Positions 9,706-59,517 of a stretch of 64,000 bases of DNA are shown in pieces. Made by a program: the position numbers and the translations under genes. This DNA is from a virus (lineage: Duplodnaviria; Heunggongvirae; Uroviricota; Caudoviricetes): the IMG/VR virus record IMGVR_UViG_3300045988_138358; one strand, 5' to 3'. Position 1 is the first letter of the stretch. Each line of letters begins with the position of its first letter. A model generated the notes under the pieces. It was not told where the DNA came from. It saw only the letters and a list, made by a program, of their open reading frames with translations, and made no database searches.

Positions 9706-10008
9706 ATGACCAAAAAAATTAACATAAAGGATTTCAGGGATGCGTGGCTTGATGATTTTTTTGAATTTTCAACACCACATAGAAAGATACCTCCTGATAT
9801 TCATATGACATTGTCACGGAAGTTGGACATTATCAATGCCGCAACTACCTGTAAGGATTTAAGATCACCACCAGGTAATCGGTATGAGGAACTGTCAGGG
9901 AAGCTAAATGGCTATTCATCAGTAAGGGTGAATAAGCAATATAGGTTAATTTTTAAGTGGGTTAACGGAAAGGCCGAGGACTTGTATCTCGACCCTCACA
10001 AATACTAA
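9706..10008 (+). CDS. higB: type II toxin HigB (RelE/ParE superfamily killer protein)
   Basis: 100 aa; toxin-first gene order and C-terminal NGYSSVRVNKQYRLIF pattern typical of HigB-type killer proteins. Confidence 0.75.
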   Translation: MTKKINIKDFRDAWLDDFFEFSTPHRKIPPDIHMTLSRKLDIINAATTCKDLRSPPGNRYEELSGKLNGYSSVRVNKQYRLIFKWVNGKAEDLYLDPHKY

Positions 10009-10078
10009 AACAGATACCCGGTTACGGACCGGGTTCTGACCAGAGTCCACTTAATACGCACGCTAGTAAGGGCAAAAA

Positions 10079-10417
10079 ATGAAACAGGCAACCAGAAAAC
10101 CGACGACCGTAGGTGATATCCTTCTGTACGAATACCTGGAGCCGTTAGAGCTGAAGATCAACGAGTTAGCAGAAATACTTCATGTTCATCGTAACACCGT
10201 AAGTGCTCTTGTTAATAATAATCGTAAGCTAACGATGGATATGGCATATCGCCTGGCAAAAGCATTCGATACTTCTGTAGATTTTTGGATTAATCTTCAG
10301 ACCGCAGTAGATCTGTGGGAAGTCGAAAATGATATGCGCGTTCAGGAAGAGTTAAGTCGTATCAATACTGCTGAAAAATTTATTTCTCAGCGGAACCTGA
10401 ATAAAAAAGCAGCCTGA
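10079..10417 (+). CDS. higA: antitoxin HigA (XRE-family HTH)
   Basis: 112 aa with HTH segment (LAEILHVHRNTVSALVNN) directly downstream of higB. Confidence 0.75.
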   Translation: MKQATRKPTTVGDILLYEYLEPLELKINELAEILHVHRNTVSALVNNNRKLTMDMAYRLAKAFDTSVDFWINLQTAVDLWEVENDMRVQEELSRINTAEKFISQRNLNKKAA

Positions 10418-10435
10418 TATAGTAAAACACATACA

Positions 10436-10466
10436 AAAAGCCCACTTAGCAAGTGGGCTTTCCTTT
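10436..10466 (+). terminator. hairpin terminator after higA
   Basis: GCCCACT-TAGCA-AGTGGGC stem followed by a T-rich tract. Confidence 0.45.
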
Positions 10467-10473
10467 GTAATTA

Positions 10474-10674
10474 ATGAACATTAAACCTATCCGTACAGAA
10501 CAAGATTATGAGGCCGCACTGCGTGCGGTCGAACCGATGTTCGATAACGAACCGGAAATGAATACTCCGGAAGGTGATTTCTTTGAGGTTATGAGTCTTC
10601 TCATTGAGGAGTACGAGAAGAAACATTACCCAATTCAGCCACCATCACCTGTTGAATCTTTTAACTATCCATAA
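10474..10674 (+). CDS. antitoxin-like N-terminal domain protein, lacks HTH domain
   Basis: 66 aa (MNIKPIRTEQDYEAAL...PEGDFFEVMSLLIEEYEKKHYPI) resembles the N-terminal half of HigA-like antitoxins; the ORF ends before any HTH domain. Confidence 0.45.
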   Translation: MNIKPIRTEQDYEAALRAVEPMFDNEPEMNTPEGDFFEVMSLLIEEYEKKHYPIQPPSPVESFNYP

Positions 10675-10695
10675 TAAAAGTAATCAGGATAAGCT

Positions 10696-11424
10696 ATGAT
10701 GTCAGAAAAAGTTACAGATAATCCGTCTATAAATGAAACAGAACTAAAATCATTTTCTGAAATAATAAAAGATAAAATATTTAACAAGGTTTTTGCATAT
10801 GTTGTCATTTCTTTTCTAATTTTTAACTGGAAGGATATTTTAATTATATTAAAGTCAAAGGACGACATCCTATATACATTATCTATTGTTTTTGTTGGTG
10901 GTAATGTCCCGTTCTTTGATAATTGGATTGTATCCCCGTGGGTTTATCACGTTGTAATCCCATTTGTTTATGGAGTATTTGCATCTGTGTTAGCTCCTAT
11001 TCTCACACTGAAGATATCTAAGCTAACAAGTAAATTATACACTGAAATAAGATATTTAGATGAAGCTGCTGATTATGATAAAAGAATAGAATTGCAAAGA
11101 AAGAAAACAAAGTTAAATCAAGCAACCAATGACGCTAAATATTCAAAACAAATCTTAGATGAAAATGAAAATAAACTTAATGACCTAGCTAAGAAACAGC
11201 GAGAAATTTGCGGCGCGATAAAACTATTGCATACTGATGTTGGCAGTATTATTGAGCTATATAAAAATAAGGGGGTTAGCATTGAATCTCCGCAAGATTT
11301 ATGTGATTTTATAGTCGCTATAAAAAGCACATCATTCTATAATGATGACAAGCATTTTAATAAATTGGTGTCTGATATTTCCAGTTTGTTTGATAATACT
11401 GGAATTGATCTTTCAAAAAAATGA
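10696..11424 (+). CDS. low-GC membrane protein with C-terminal coiled coil, unknown function
   Basis: 242 aa; three hydrophobic helices in the N-terminal half, Lys/Glu-rich coiled coil after; GC content clearly lower than neighbours. Confidence 0.6.
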   Translation: MMSEKVTDNPSINETELKSFSEIIKDKIFNKVFAYVVISFLIFNWKDILIILKSKDDILYTLSIVFVGGNVPFFDNWIVSPWVYHVVIPFVYGVFASVLAPILTLKISKLTSKLYTEIRYLDEAADYDKRIELQRKKTKLNQATNDAKYSKQILDENENKLNDLAKKQREICGAIKLLHTDVGSIIELYKNKGVSIESPQDLCDFIVAIKSTSFYNDDKHFNKLVSDISSLFDNTGIDLSKK

Positions 11425-31151: not shown

Positions 31152-32180
31152 TTACGAATCCATCAGGCGGCTATTAGCCCCCACAGACACGCCGCCACGG
31201 CGAAGATACCGCATAAGTGTTTCCGGTTTCTTCCAGGTTCCTTCCTGCATGATCTCCACCATAGACACCTGCTTTTCAGCCATATCAATAGCGGCCCCGA
31301 CGCGTGCACTATGCCCGGTCCACGTCCGGTATCTTCCTTTGTTTGGCGTAGCATCTCTTTTATTCAGCAACACCCAGGCGTCGCTGAATATTTTCTCCAT
31401 TGCAGGTGCAGTAAGGGGCGTTGTCGTGATCCTGGCCTTATTGCTACGGTGTATCGGCGGGAACAGCACTGCGTCAGGATGTTCGCGAAGCCCGGAAACA
31501 TCCAGCCAGTCATTCAGCACAGCGGTAGTGCGACGGGAAAGCACCTTATCAAGCCCGGCGGCGGTCGTTATTGTCTTCGTGTGTGAAATATGTAGCGTGA
31601 CAGTGTCACCTGTTTGGTCCAGATCTCCTACACGAATACGCGAGATTTCCGACATACGCATCAGCGTATTGTATGCAACAAAGAGAAAAGCCCGGTTGCG
31701 CAGGTCCACCAGCCGTTCTGACCTGGACAACAGGACGTCGAGCAGTTTCAGATCGTCCCACCGCAGCGGTATAGCCTGGCCTGTTCGTTCGCCTTTTTCA
31801 GTTGCCGCTTCGCGCCGGATGCGCCGCATAGCCAGAGAAACACTTTTATCATCCGAAAGTGGCGGAAGGCCACAATGCGAAAGCAGCATGTTCAGCATGG
31901 CGTAGTGCTTATCAATGGTGGTCGAAGCCAGATCGGCATCATGCAGCTGAAGAAAATACTCGCGGGCCATTTCTGGTGAGATCGGAAACCAGGCAAGCTG
32001 GCGAGCGTGACACCAGCGCGCCCAGGAATGAAACACCAAACGGAGGTCGCGCAGAGTATTCGGCGCATAAGCTCCCTGGTCATTCATGAACCGCATAAAG
32101 TTTTCTGCGGCTTCCTGGTACTCTTTGCCAATGTTGCGCAGAAAACCACCGGAACTGCCAGAGATAATTAATTCACTCAT
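31152..32180 (-). CDS. dre: Cre-family tyrosine recombinase, Dre-like
   Basis: Roughly 45% identity to P1 Cre by eye across the catalytic domain (SLAMRRIRRE, AYNTLMRMSEISRIRV, WTGHSARVGAA, LMRYLR); paired with a rox-like site. Confidence 0.9.
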   Translation of the reverse strand: MSELIISGSSGGFLRNIGKEYQEAAENFMRFMNDQGAYAPNTLRDLRLVFHSWARWCHARQLAWFPISPEMAREYFLQLHDADLASTTIDKHYAMLNMLLSHCGLPPLSDDKSVSLAMRRIRREAATEKGERTGQAIPLRWDDLKLLDVLLSRSERLVDLRNRAFLFVAYNTLMRMSEISRIRVGDLDQTGDTVTLHISHTKTITTAAGLDKVLSRRTTAVLNDWLDVSGLREHPDAVLFPPIHRSNKARITTTPLTAPAMEKIFSDAWVLLNKRDATPNKGRYRTWTGHSARVGAAIDMAEKQVSMVEIMQEGTWKKPETLMRYLRRGGVSVGANSRLMDS

Positions 32181-55325: not shown

Positions 55326-57008
55326 TTAATTGCTCATCACAAATTTTGCAAAGTTTATTAACTGTTCTGGCGTCCAGTTTTCCGGATCGTCACCGGACGA
55401 CAACGGCGCGGATTCGTACATACCATGCTCGTTGTTTTGCTCTGATTCATTCGCCTTAAACTCTTTGATCATGGTGTTGAGAGTGTCATCGTCGATGTGC
55501 AACTGCTCAGTGAACAGATAACGCATAAACGCGTCGCTACCAGCCAGTTTCGGGTTGTTCTGGATCTGGTCCATAATTTGGGAGATGACAGCAACAAAGT
55601 TGGCGCGTGCATCCAGTTCTCGGTTTTCCTCTTCCTGGATAGCAGTGTTCATTGAGTTGAATTGCACGTCATAAGGGCGGTTTGTTTCGGTGTAAACCTT
55701 GCCGTATTTATAAGCGAGGTGAATGTCCAGAAGCCGATAAATAGTTCGCTGGGCGGCCTGTCTGATCCAGTTCGCACGCAATGCAGCCTGGATAGCAGTT
55801 TGCTGCCAGCCGCCTTCTCCAAGCCCTCCGCTCATCTGATCAGCCCAGCCAAGCATTGTTGCGTCAATGCCGAGGCTTGCAGCAAGCTGCCGGAGGTGAA
55901 ACATAACGTCTTCGATACCACTGATATCTGCGGGTATGGATTGCGTATCAATGGTGATGCCGTTCTTCCCGTCTCCCATAACAGGTATCAGATGGTTAAG
56001 CACAGTCGGAATAGCGTTGGCATTAATCGACCTTTGCGCCACCAGGTCACTATGACGCTTCAATGCCTGGCTGACGCCACGCGTATAGTTCGCCGCATTA
56101 ACCGGGTCCAGTGTGTTCGTCGTAAGAGCAATCAGGCGGTCAATTTTGGCTGCATTATTTCGCGTTGATTTCAGCGCGGCGAGCGAAGCACATAAATTAA
56201 GGTAAGGTTCATAGCTGTATTCCAGGAATGAAGTTCCGTAATTCTGCGTCTCCATTAACGGCTTATCAGCCTGATCACTTAACAGTGAATACCCTTTTGT
56301 ACCGTAGCTAACCGGAATAACCTTATGCTGCGGCGTCCAATACGGGTTTTTCATGGAAACAAGATTCCACGGTTCGGTTATTACCCTGCGCAAACTATGC
56401 GTATCCAGAATGTAATCACCACTGAAACCGACCAGCTGGCTACCGCGATAAAATTCCTGGACGAAGTGTGGAAGAGTGTAATAACTGGATTCAATGCCAG
56501 TTATCCCTCTGCCCTGTTCAGCATAAGGTCGGACATAAGACACCCCAAAGATCGCCATAATCATGGCCCATGAAGGAAGTCCGTCATTAATCATTGCCCC
56601 CAAATCAGCTGTTAACTCTTCACACCTACTTACCGCCTCGGCATCGGAACCATCTTTTGGCGAAAGCATGAATGCCAGCCCGGTTTTCTTTGAAGGCGCA
56701 AGCGCATGTGCAATATGAATGTTTAAAGCCGTTGAGATAGTCGGGCTTTTAGCCATCGTTTCCAGGATGTTGTACTTTTGCAGGCGCTCGCCGGGCAGTT
56801 CAGCGGATAAAGAAATTGAATCTGCTGCACTCGTCATGCCATCGCTGTTGCCACCCAGGATGCCTGGACGTAAAGCGGACAGGCCGGAACGAGCAACGAC
56901 ACTATGCCCGCTCGTAAAAACGACCGGATCGGCGGGCGTAACATCACCACCGTTGAAGGCTTTCTTCAATGCCGACAGAAAGCCTTTGTTTTTGTCTTTC
57001 GTTGCCAT
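55326..57008 (-). CDS. portal-like protein (putative)
   Basis: 560-aa protein preceding the head gene; assigned by size and position only. Confidence 0.35.
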   Translation of the reverse strand: MATKDKNKGFLSALKKAFNGGDVTPADPVVFTSGHSVVARSGLSALRPGILGGNSDGMTSAADSISLSAELPGERLQKYNILETMAKSPTISTALNIHIAHALAPSKKTGLAFMLSPKDGSDAEAVSRCEELTADLGAMINDGLPSWAMIMAIFGVSYVRPYAEQGRGITGIESSYYTLPHFVQEFYRGSQLVGFSGDYILDTHSLRRVITEPWNLVSMKNPYWTPQHKVIPVSYGTKGYSLLSDQADKPLMETQNYGTSFLEYSYEPYLNLCASLAALKSTRNNAAKIDRLIALTTNTLDPVNAANYTRGVSQALKRHSDLVAQRSINANAIPTVLNHLIPVMGDGKNGITIDTQSIPADISGIEDVMFHLRQLAASLGIDATMLGWADQMSGGLGEGGWQQTAIQAALRANWIRQAAQRTIYRLLDIHLAYKYGKVYTETNRPYDVQFNSMNTAIQEEENRELDARANFVAVISQIMDQIQNNPKLAGSDAFMRYLFTEQLHIDDDTLNTMIKEFKANESEQNNEHGMYESAPLSSGDDPENWTPEQLINFAKFVMSN

Positions 57009-57092
57009 GAATCACCGCGAATTGTTTCCAGTTTCGCGGCAGCATAATCAGTATGTGATTTGATAGGAGAGTTTTATTGGTGCTGTTAATGA

Positions 57093-57425
57093 TTACTTAC
57101 ACGCTTCCCTGCCCACATAGTCAGCGATGGAACCACTTACAATCCCCACCATTTTGGGATCAGGTTTTGAATTTTTCATCTGTTCAAGCGTCTCCCCAGA
57201 ACCAAGATACTTCACTTCATTTGTCATGCAATTATATATTCTCTTCGAATATGCTGTCCCAGATGGGCCTTCCCTTTTTGTAATGATAGTTTTATATTCA
57301 CCTTCACGACCAATATCCAGCACTGTATAAGTAGCTTTTGGATCAGAAGGGATTTTTATCTTATAGGGCGCAGCACAAACTGATGCAGAAGCTAATAAAG
57401 CACAAACCAGGATTATATTTCTCAT
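57093..57425 (-). CDS. small secreted protein, low GC
   Basis: Signal peptide MRNIILVCALLASASVCA. Confidence 0.45.
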   Translation of the reverse strand: MRNIILVCALLASASVCAAPYKIKIPSDPKATYTVLDIGREGEYKTIITKREGPSGTAYSKRIYNCMTNEVKYLGSGETLEQMKNSKPDPKMVGIVSGSIADYVGREACK

Positions 57426-57469
57426 AACTATACTCCATGTTATAAATTATCAAAGCTAAGTAAGTAAAA

Positions 57470-58027
57470 CTAATCTGGATCAACAATAAGTTGTGAAACC
57501 TTCGCTGCAAGTCTTATATAGCGTTCAGCTTCATTTCTGGTGATTTCAAAATCCAGAAAGTGCGCGGCTTCATTTCTTAGCGAGCGAAGCCGTTTTAACA
57601 GCAAAGCAGCGGAATCTTCAAGTTTTCCTTCTTGAATCAACCAGTCAATGAATAGTTCTGGATTCCGTTTCGGCTTTAACCCTCCCTGTATAAAACCAGA
57701 GCGCCCGGCAGCCTCCTCTACCATCAACCATGACTCCATAATAGCAGCTCTAGGTGAAAAATCAGCAATTCTCTCTAATTGTGCGATTTTATTTATATAT
57801 TCAGAGTTATTATTACCATTGTTAATATTTTTATTCCCAACTGATGCATCTGTTGCTAATACTTCTGCTGCGGTTAGTCCCGCATTAAACTCAGCTTCAG
57901 CTGCTCCAATCTTGAATCTACTCAGACGTACTATTAACTCCTTAATATCAACCCCATACTTATTAACAAACCACACAAACACCAATGGCCATGCAAGAGC
58001 TGAAACCAAATCTGTAAATGATGACAT
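57470..58027 (-). CDS. HEPN-motif protein with N-terminal transmembrane helix, low GC
   Basis: 185 aa; hydrophobic helix LVSALAWPLVFVWFV then R-x4-H motif (LRSLRNEAAHF) near the C-terminus. Confidence 0.55.
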   Translation of the reverse strand: MSSFTDLVSALAWPLVFVWFVNKYGVDIKELIVRLSRFKIGAAEAEFNAGLTAAEVLATDASVGNKNINNGNNNSEYINKIAQLERIADFSPRAAIMESWLMVEEAAGRSGFIQGGLKPKRNPELFIDWLIQEGKLEDSAALLLKRLRSLRNEAAHFLDFEITRNEAERYIRLAAKVSQLIVDPD

Positions 58028-58152
58028 CGGTTATCCTCATTCATTATATTCTCAGCTAGTTTACATATTATTAAACAGGAACAAAAATGAATTATGCGCC
58101 CATCTTCAGATATGTTATGAACGCACAGAAAGAGCATTAAGTTACATTGATG

Positions 58153-59517
58153 TTACCCAACAGAGGTTGACTCAAACATAGAAAAAATTAACCCTTTACC
58201 TTCGCCAAACTCAGTCTCAATTTCATCAGAAACGGCAGATAAAATGCTACGCAGATCGACATCTCCGCCGCCGAACATATCGCCTAACGCTTGTTGCTGG
58301 TGAATAAGCTCATCGTTAATTTTTTGCGCCAGTTTCTTGAAAGCAGCCCCCATACGCTTAGCGCTTCTGTTGTTGGCAACAATAAACAGAGCAAGCGCTT
58401 CCGCTTCCGGAGTGCTATCTCCAAACAATCCGCGCTGTGCGATCACCTCTTCTACTGCCTGACCGTTATCTTTTGCTTCACGAACAAGGTTAATTGCTTC
58501 CTGTAGCGCGGCAATAGCCTGTTTATCCAGCCCATTCAATTGCTCTATGCCGTCTACTAGTCCGGTTACCGTGTCATGGTGAACATCGCCTGAAAGTGAC
58601 TGCATTTGCGCAAAATCGCTGGCTGCCGTATTTAATGCGGTAAGGATGTTACGCATTTCCGGATCTGGCTCTTCCGCCACCAGCCGGACAAGCCTTTCAT
58701 CCTTGTACGCTTTGGCAAAAATTGCATTCTGGATGCGGTCGATAAGTTGTTTCGTTGGACGCCCATCGGCAGTAAGCAAACCTGCCGTCGCCGTATCACC
58801 TATTTCGCGCAGAAACGCACGAATAAACGCATCATTGGACCGCGCCAGTAGATTCCCATCATCTGAAGGATTAAATAGCGCCATGACGCTCTCAGTGAGA
58901 AATTGCGCATCCGCATACGCTTTTTCACTTGCAGCCATCTCTTGCAGATCGCTGATGTTTGAATCGCGGGCAAATTGTGCGCGGTCTACATCTGTGAGTC
59001 TTTCGCGCACCAATACGGGCATAGACATTTGTGAAATGTCGTCAGGATTCAGACCAAACTCTTTTGCATGATCGATCAGGTACTGGCGATATTCATCCGC
59101 CTGCCCTTGCTCATAGGCACGCCAGATACCCATGCTCCTTCCGTTGCCGGATTCAACAACGTTGTCCGGACCAACTATCGGCGCTCCGTGGCTGCTCATG
59201 CCGGAATCCGTTAATTGTGCCGGGCGTAAATTGGAGGCAATACGGTTAACCTGGAGTTTGCTGGATAGCCGTGTACGGTCACGTGGCTGGAGTTCTTCCG
59301 GGAAGGCCGGATTAATCGTACCGTCAAGGTTGTTCGAAATGATCAGGCTGCTGGCATCAACGACCTTAAAAGCCGTCTTTACCTCTGCCCCTTTACTGGT
59401 GACTACGTAACTACTGCGCCCCTGGCGTGTTTCTCGCCTCTCTAATGAAGAAACCAGCGCAATAACACTGTTAATGTCTGCTGCTTCGGATATCGCGGAA
59501 GTAACTGACTTGTTCAA
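58153..59517 (-). CDS. hypothetical protein, possibly virion-associated
   Basis: 454-aa ORF in the darA-like operon. Confidence 0.45.
   Translation of the reverse strand: MNKSVTSAISEAADINSVIALVSSLERRETRQGRSSYVVTSKGAEVKTAFKVVDASSLIISNNLDGTINPAFPEELQPRDRTRLSSKLQVNRIASNLRPAQLTDSGMSSHGAPIVGPDNVVESGNGRSMGIWRAYEQGQADEYRQYLIDHAKEFGLNPDDISQMSMPVLVRERLTDVDRAQFARDSNISDLQEMAASEKAYADAQFLTESVMALFNPSDDGNLLARSNDAFIRAFLREIGDTATAGLLTADGRPTKQLIDRIQNAIFAKAYKDERLVRLVAEEPDPEMRNILTALNTAASDFAQMQSLSGDVHHDTVTGLVDGIEQLNGLDKQAIAALQEAINLVREAKDNGQAVEEVIAQRGLFGDSTPEAEALALFIVANNRSAKRMGAAFKKLAQKINDELIHQQQALGDMFGGGDVDLRSILSAVSDEIETEFGEGKGLIFSMFESTSVG

Follow-up and report, generated by a model that had tools for sequence, protein, structure and literature searches.

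A HEPN-superfamily protein with a conserved N-terminal hydrophobic anchor belongs to the variable cargo of a D6-like plasmid-prophage

A group of HEPN proteins termed TM(WP)-HEPN, which overlaps DUF4145, was described in silico in 2013 by Anantharaman et al. (PMC3710099, section 15). Members of this group combine a single transmembrane helix that carries a strictly conserved WP with a HEPN domain predicted to face the cytoplasm. It has been proposed that these proteins couple surface stimuli to RNA degradation, and the same WP helix is also found fused to receiver domains (PMC3710099). A full-text search of the literature yielded no later paper on the TM(WP)-HEPN architecture and no experimental work on any of its members. 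A sequence-only reading of the locus analyzed here had invoked membrane-anchored HEPN proteins as known RNase toxins and abortive-infection effectors, which was an overstatement, given that only predictions were found for this architecture.

Recent work on solo HEPN proteins, RAZR and HepS among them, has revealed single proteins that both sense a phage and execute the response on their own. RAZR (PD-T7-4) is a single-protein abortive-infection RNase that consists of a zinc-finger and a DUF4145 domain; it is soluble, becomes active by assembling as a 24-mer on rings of phage portal protein or Gp77, and requires a conserved Arg and a conserved His for defense (PMC13017515). [quoted passage not shown] Among the DUF4145/solo-HEPN proteins, BxaP is a proven defense effector (PMC10799925), and Ishtar is a defense that acts against plasmids (bioRxiv 10.64898/2026.07.06.735840). 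The membrane-anchored branch with the WP helix, known from the 2013 prediction, is very widespread, and the protein described here, ORF185, offers a practical entry point to its study.

ORF185 (57470..58027, minus strand; 185 aa, no cysteine) and its neighbor ORF110 (57093..57425, minus strand; 110 aa) are encoded near one end of the window, that is, the whole 64-kb stretch of DNA that we analyzed. The last 12 kb of the window are 97.8% identical to Escherichia phage D6, and on sequence grounds we assign the source element to the D6-like plasmid-prophages of the P1 family. The D6 annotation and a Pfam scan agree on the order of the minus-strand genes, which is lydA, lydB, hdf, darA, ddrA, ddrB, orf24, orf23, prt, pro, repL, with ORF185 corresponding to orf24 and ORF110 to orf23 of D6. 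The upstream flank is a short form of ddrB (58153..59517, minus strand; 454 aa; Pfam ddrB-ParB, 1.8e-42; D6 annotation), with darA and hdf, recognized by matches to Pfam DarA_N and DarA_C, on the same side. The downstream flank is the portal gene prt (55326..57008, minus strand; a weak Portal_T4 match and the D6 annotation), which is co-oriented with the two genes.

The two genes make up most of a variable low-GC module of 1110 bp (57062..58171, no strand assigned) that also includes the last codons of ddrB and was delimited by blastn against three other alleles, with breakpoints at 57061 and 58169-58172. The GC content of the module is 0.385, a z-score of -2.9, and just 2% of the 1110-bp windows across the 64 kb are equally low. 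Overall GC is 0.400 in ORF185 and 0.399 in ORF110 compared to 0.493 in prt and 0.497 in ddrB, and the disparity extends to GC3 (0.31 and 0.32 versus 0.53 and 0.48, respectively). When 5 kb spanning the site served as a query, matches came from 120 plasmids of E. coli, Salmonella and Shigella, of which only 14 reached a query coverage of at least 80%; most of the others cover 78% and lack the module. Records of the pSa1423 type (H14, H16), with fragmented open reading frames that are probably assembly errors, were left out. The ORF185 gene is present in about 12% of D6-like plasmids. Four allelic states occupy this single ddrB|prt site: the module itself; an "empty" allele, where 51 bp occupy the position of the module, as in most related plasmids; an allele with tnpA and tnpB of the IS200/IS605 type; and an allele in which a DdrB of 1013 aa is followed by three small genes, one of them annotated as XRE-type. 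Among 5426 complete E. coli genomes, the module was found in 9, in every case on a plasmid of about 90 kb and never on a chromosome, with at least 99.4% identity. Direct and inverted repeats, target-site duplications and terminal repeats were looked for at the borders of the module, and none was found.

The region is a horizontally acquired cargo within the dar/head late-gene block. The sequence-only reading had described two genes of lower GC than their neighbors, located between darA-like and portal-like genes and representing cargo inside a virion-protein operon. Each element of this description holds: the flanks are ddrB, darA and hdf on one side and prt on the other, and cargo status is evident from the foreign composition together with the presence/absence polymorphism at one site, a comparison across related elements that had been suggested as a check. 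D6-like phage-plasmids have a cargo hotspot at the ddrB|prt junction, a useful place to mine for additional accessory genes.

Several further features of the element were observed in the course of this comparison. Among D6-like plasmids, ddrB exists in a long form of 1013 aa (locus L011, 3589-6630) and a short form of 454-461 aa; the C-terminus of DdrB varies by allele, and the variable site begins within the 3' end of ddrB. Upstream of prt, at 57015-57039 (minus strand), a 7-bp inverted repeat, CCGCGAA...TTCGCGG, overlies the likely ribosome-binding site of this gene, the start codon of which is at 57008. In an empty allele (L010), the repeat reads CCGCAAA...TTTGCGG, with both substitutions at pairing positions and hence compensatory, a pattern suggestive of a conserved RNA hairpin with control over translation of the portal gene. 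GC is lowest elsewhere in the window, in an island at 9706-11424, where it falls to about 0.33 around 10.0-11.5 kb. The island encodes a HigB-like toxin of the RelE family (9706-10008; Pfam 4.4e-35), an HTH_3 protein that is probably HigA (10079-10417), and a 242-aa open reading frame without a Pfam match (10696-11424), and is likely to be another cargo block. A second low-GC patch, at about 32 kb, adjoins a tyrosine recombinase gene (31152-32180; Phage_integrase, 5.3e-17), which probably encodes the plasmid-prophage's Cre-like recombinase.

ORF185 is a HEPN-superfamily protein. Its sequence matches Pfam DUF4145 (PF13643) with 20.0 bits and E 7.3e-4, below the gathering cut-off of 23.1, and weakly matches HEPN_RiboL-PSP as well; the D6 orthologue carries the DUF4145 label in RefSeq, and ORF185 matches phrog_18019. 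At the level of the family, DUF4145 is matched at E<=0.01 by 31 of 38 members (best 3.3e-7), HEPN_Swt1 by 14 of the 38 aligned members, and other HEPN families by a few. A search of PDB sequences with ORF185 alone gave no significant match. We identified 95 homologues, mostly enterobacterial, chromosomal, 185-194 aa in length and about 58% identical, the remoter ones being metagenomic. In the AlphaFold2 model built from the alignment (pLDDT 80), residues 2-60 form one long helix, residues 61-73 are a disordered linker of low complexity, and residues 74-182 fold into five helices, an all-alpha bundle of the HEPN type. Within the HEPN domain (residues 74-185; 57473..57808, minus strand), the helices span residues 74-90, 92-113, 123-132, 138-156 and 164-182, and the fourth ends in RNEAAH (R151-H156; 57560..57577, minus strand), the putative catalytic R-x4-H.

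Invariant positions in the 38-sequence alignment are S91, P92, R93, A94, A95, E98, W100, E104, L130, R151, A154 and Y170, and W13, P14 and H156 are each at least 90% conserved. A lone R-x4-H might arise by chance, but R151 is invariant and H156 nearly so across these 38 homologues. A profile search of the whole library retrieved 4027 cluster representatives at E<=1e-10; among the best 150 of these, with pairwise identity below 50%, nearly all are 180-210 aa long and match end to end, a few being longer, up to 285 aa, and R-x4-H is present in 149. The sequence-only reading had proposed a C-terminal HEPN-type motif, RNEAAH, and had named profile search and structure prediction as ways to check it; the conserved motif, the profile matches across the family and the predicted fold support the HEPN assignment.

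The same reading had assigned ORF185 an N-terminal transmembrane helix. The conserved hydrophobic anchor stands, the segment being present in 145 of the best 150 of the 4027 representatives and the WP pair in all 150, whereas its transmembrane status is probable, the stretch of about 15 residues being short for a membrane span. In ORF185, the hydrophobic helix consists of residues 7-21 (57965..58009, minus strand), LVSALAWPLVFVWFV, with a mean Kyte-Doolittle value of 2.21 over the 15 residues. The conserved W13-P14 falls within this segment, which places ORF185 in the TM(WP)-DUF4145 HEPN group. Neutral to acidic residues (MSSFTD) precede the segment, and a stretch rich in Lys and Arg follows it (K23, K29, R34, R37, K39); from these charges, a probable N-out/C-in orientation is predicted, with the HEPN domain in the cytoplasm.

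Genomic neighborhoods of ORF185 homologues were surveyed in eight contexts, a qualitative comparison and not a statistical enrichment test, and within that scope members of the family occur next to known defense genes or in mobile-element hotspots. In Cronobacter, the homologue belongs to an island with a CAP12-type TIR, AbiTii, ApeA-HEPN and resolvases, and in one metagenomic lineage it adjoins a second DUF4145 gene, Ymh-HEPN, a RES-domain protein, an integrase fragment and a transposase. In Raoultella and Klebsiella, the gene is located 3' of a D5-type primase in a satellite-like element with integrase and AlpA; in Salmonella, it follows an integrase fragment beside a P22-like prophage; in Serratia, it is flanked by nrdDG and phn; and in a different metagenome, it is found among transporters, beside a dCTP-deaminase-like gene. 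The homologues stand alone, with neighbors that differ in every surveyed context and no constant partner.

Some of these loci have features of their own. In locus L027 (6203-7552), DUF4145 genes are arranged in tandem, with a 227-aa paralogue directly 5' of a 183-aa WP-helix/HEPN gene, and the pair adjoins genes for Ymh-HEPN, DUF5677 and RES-domain proteins. One copy of the integrase/AlpA/D5-primase element includes genes for a ClpP-like protease and a major capsid protein (L008, 8919-10371), which others (cf. L006) lack; the element resembles a phage satellite that forms capsids and has deletion variants. In Salmonella (L002, 8660-10066), the convergent neighbor of 468 aa has no Pfam match and contains IRDMRNWASAAHP, an R-x6-H reminiscent of HEPN; judging from this motif, it may be another unannotated nuclease-type defense gene.

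The ORF185 gene is preceded by an AT-rich leader of 125 bp (58028..58152, minus strand), with a Shine-Dalgarno sequence, GAGGA, about 8 nt 5' of the ATG and a weak promoter-like site at 58118-58091, possibly a promoter of its own. Around a TATAAT-like element, the leader is partly conserved with those of the Salmonella (L002, 7845-8000) and Serratia (L017, 6845-7000) homologues; the retention of such blocks at about 58% protein identity suggests that the regulatory region moves along with the gene. Consensus scans gave only weak sites, none convincing, for a separate ORF185 promoter, and found no promoter at the Salmonella and Serratia loci. Because the module is co-oriented with the essential prt gene downstream, and no terminator-like site was found in 56900-58300, it is probably transcribed with the D6 late genes, and a separate promoter for expression in lysogens is plausible. 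If transcribed late, ORF185 must tolerate the lytic cycle of D6 itself, as HepS tolerates Gifsy-1.

The second gene of the module, ORF110, specifies a small exported protein that begins with a typical signal peptide (residues 1-18; 57372-57425; cleavage VCA|A), in line with the secreted protein that the sequence-only reading had recognized there, and has the Shine-Dalgarno sequence GGAG about 8 nt 5' of its ATG. The mature part, of about 90 residues, is highly conserved, with two invariant cysteines, C66 and C109, and some homologues have lipoboxes. The 108 homologues come from Enterobacterales, Pseudomonas, Xanthomonas and others. One of them, in a Pseudomonas prophage, is encoded directly 3' of a cI-like repressor, and another, in a siphophage, just 5' of the tape-measure gene. 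A structural model (pLDDT 91.5) shows a four- to five-stranded sheet with helices, and a weak match in BFVD is a phage "Surface-adhesin protein E". The resemblance to Haemophilus influenzae Protein E (surface-adhesin E) is one of fold, with identity of about 10% and no sequence-profile match, and ORF110 is the shorter protein, with about 92 mature residues. A relationship to DUF2511/YebY, suggested by one UniRef name, was rejected given that a Pfam scan of 32 family members gave no match. We also rejected a two-gene or toxin-antitoxin system, as tblastn of both proteins over the loci compared revealed no co-occurrence outside D6-like elements; since homologues of ORF185 and ORF110 occur independently, the two are not a functional pair. 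ORF110 would then be a passenger in its own right, a Protein E-like protein that is exported, carries a disulfide bond and acts in the envelope, and a role in superinfection exclusion or surface modification is our guess.

Given the genomic context of the homologues and the analogy with other DUF4145/HEPN defense proteins, we somewhat favor the interpretation of ORF185 as a solo, membrane-tethered latent RNase that would function in exclusion or abortive infection. Under this interpretation, ORF185 would be a single-gene accessory ("moron") cargo of the D6-type plasmid-prophage. The short WP helix would anchor the protein in the inner membrane and would be followed by a conserved juxtamembrane helix, a variable linker and the C-terminal DUF4145-type HEPN domain facing the cytoplasm. 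A membrane-proximal or infection-linked cue would induce RNA cleavage via R151 and H156, presumably across a HEPN dimer, and the resulting halt of translation would exclude competing phages or other mobile elements, to the benefit of both the lysogen and the plasmid-prophage; ORF185 would stay silent towards its D6 carrier in the late lytic phase. Several observations weigh against a defense role: some homologues reside in ordinary chromosomal neighborhoods (Serratia and one metagenome), PADLOC gives no match, the DUF4145 score is below the cut-off, the hydrophobic stretch spans no more than about 15 residues, there is no convincing promoter, and among 50,697 phage records D6 alone carries a homologue.

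The same housekeeping surroundings of some homologues would suit a membrane-associated regulator of RNA stability that answers envelope or cell-surface signals, a physiological RNase and not an immune effector. This is the original 2013 proposal for the family, namely stimulus-dependent RNA degradation, with the fusion of the WP helix to receiver domains as an additional argument (PMC3710099), and it accords with a family that is very large and uniform in length. However, the gene is patchy in distribution and mobile, being found in phage-plasmid cargo, satellite-like elements and defense islands, often adjacent to integrases or transposases, and its occurrence in about 12% of D6-like plasmids and in 9 of 5426 E. 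coli genomes is atypical of a core regulator, so that we consider this explanation unlikely. Maintenance of the plasmid-prophage by an addiction or stabilization module, with ORF185 as the toxin and ORF110 or an unseen element as the antidote, is improbable: neither MNT nor any other cytoplasmic partner is adjacent to ORF185, ORF110 is exported and has homologues that occur without ORF185, the neighbor of ORF185 homologues is different in every context, and most D6-like plasmids lack the module altogether.

Both genes share the orientation of the flanking ddrB and prt, no terminator intervenes, and late co-transcription is therefore likely; this position could alternatively mean that they serve the lytic cycle or Dar anti-restriction and head assembly, the one as an RNase associated with the virion or with host takeover, the other as an envelope factor. 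The site is without a gene in most D6-like and P1-like relatives, which makes the cargo dispensable for virion production; its composition is foreign, homologues occur outside any phage structural context, and proteins with a membrane anchor or a signal peptide are not compatible with capsid packaging, all of which renders such a role quite improbable. The subthreshold Pfam score might indicate a catalytically inert or decaying remnant that is functionless in this element. Yet the ORF185 frame is intact over its full length, with 98% identity to its D6 counterpart, nine E. coli plasmids share the module with at least 99.4% identity, and the family-invariant S91, P92, R93, A94, A95, E98, W100, E104, R151 and Y170 are all retained, making decay very improbable.

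Beyond the interpretation of ORF185 itself as a tethered latent RNase, a bolder proposal, which we advance tentatively and with some doubt, is that the WP-helix/HEPN family as a whole, the D6 version included, is an uncharacterized single-protein immune system, which senses an event at the membrane and responds with RNA cleavage at the inner membrane face. The family encompasses at least 4000 distinct clusters at 50% identity, all of about 190 aa. Candidate events would be the entry of phage DNA, the insertion of a holin or pinholin, or a membrane protein of another element, and the D6-type plasmid-prophage would deploy its copy from the late-operon hotspot, defending the lysogen and the lytic cycle from competitors while ignoring D6. 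ORF185 is a convenient test case for these ideas, being part of a tractable E. coli plasmid-prophage for which natural, isogenic-like empty alleles exist, with R151A, H156A and W13/P14 as the obvious point-mutant controls. Should ORF185 confer no phenotype, it would simply be an annotated DUF4145 moron.

Compared with the characterized HEPN systems, ORF185 shares the DUF4145-type HEPN domain with RAZR/PD-T7-4, but RAZR has an N-terminal Cys4 zinc-finger, whereas ORF185 lacks cysteine altogether and is equipped with a membrane anchor. PADLOC models gave no match to ORF185 at E<=1 and none that was consistent across the family, and with the lack of cysteines this led us to reject its identification as RAZR/PD-T7-4 or another cataloged defense system; the adjacency of ORF185 to the portal gene is probably coincidental. 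In a profile search against PDB sequences, the family motif RNeAAH aligned to IRNKYAH of HepS with a non-significant E of 0.17, and the word "transmembrane" is absent from the HepS paper. With HepT/MNT and other HEPN toxin-antitoxins, ORF185 has in common the HEPN fold and R-x4-H, but HepT/MNT pairs include an antitoxin gene, whereas ORF185 has a membrane anchor and no adjacent MNT or antitoxin; its neighbors are ddrB and the exported ORF110, and those of its homologues vary, so a HepT-MNT pair was rejected as well. From the TM(WP)-HEPN group (PMC3710099), in contrast, ORF185 does not differ: the architecture is the same, and we file the protein there. This architecture has been known since 2013 and the D6 gene was already labeled DUF4145, so that ORF185 is a new member of a described group, to which the present analysis adds carriage in a hotspot of a P1-family plasmid-prophage and in defense islands.
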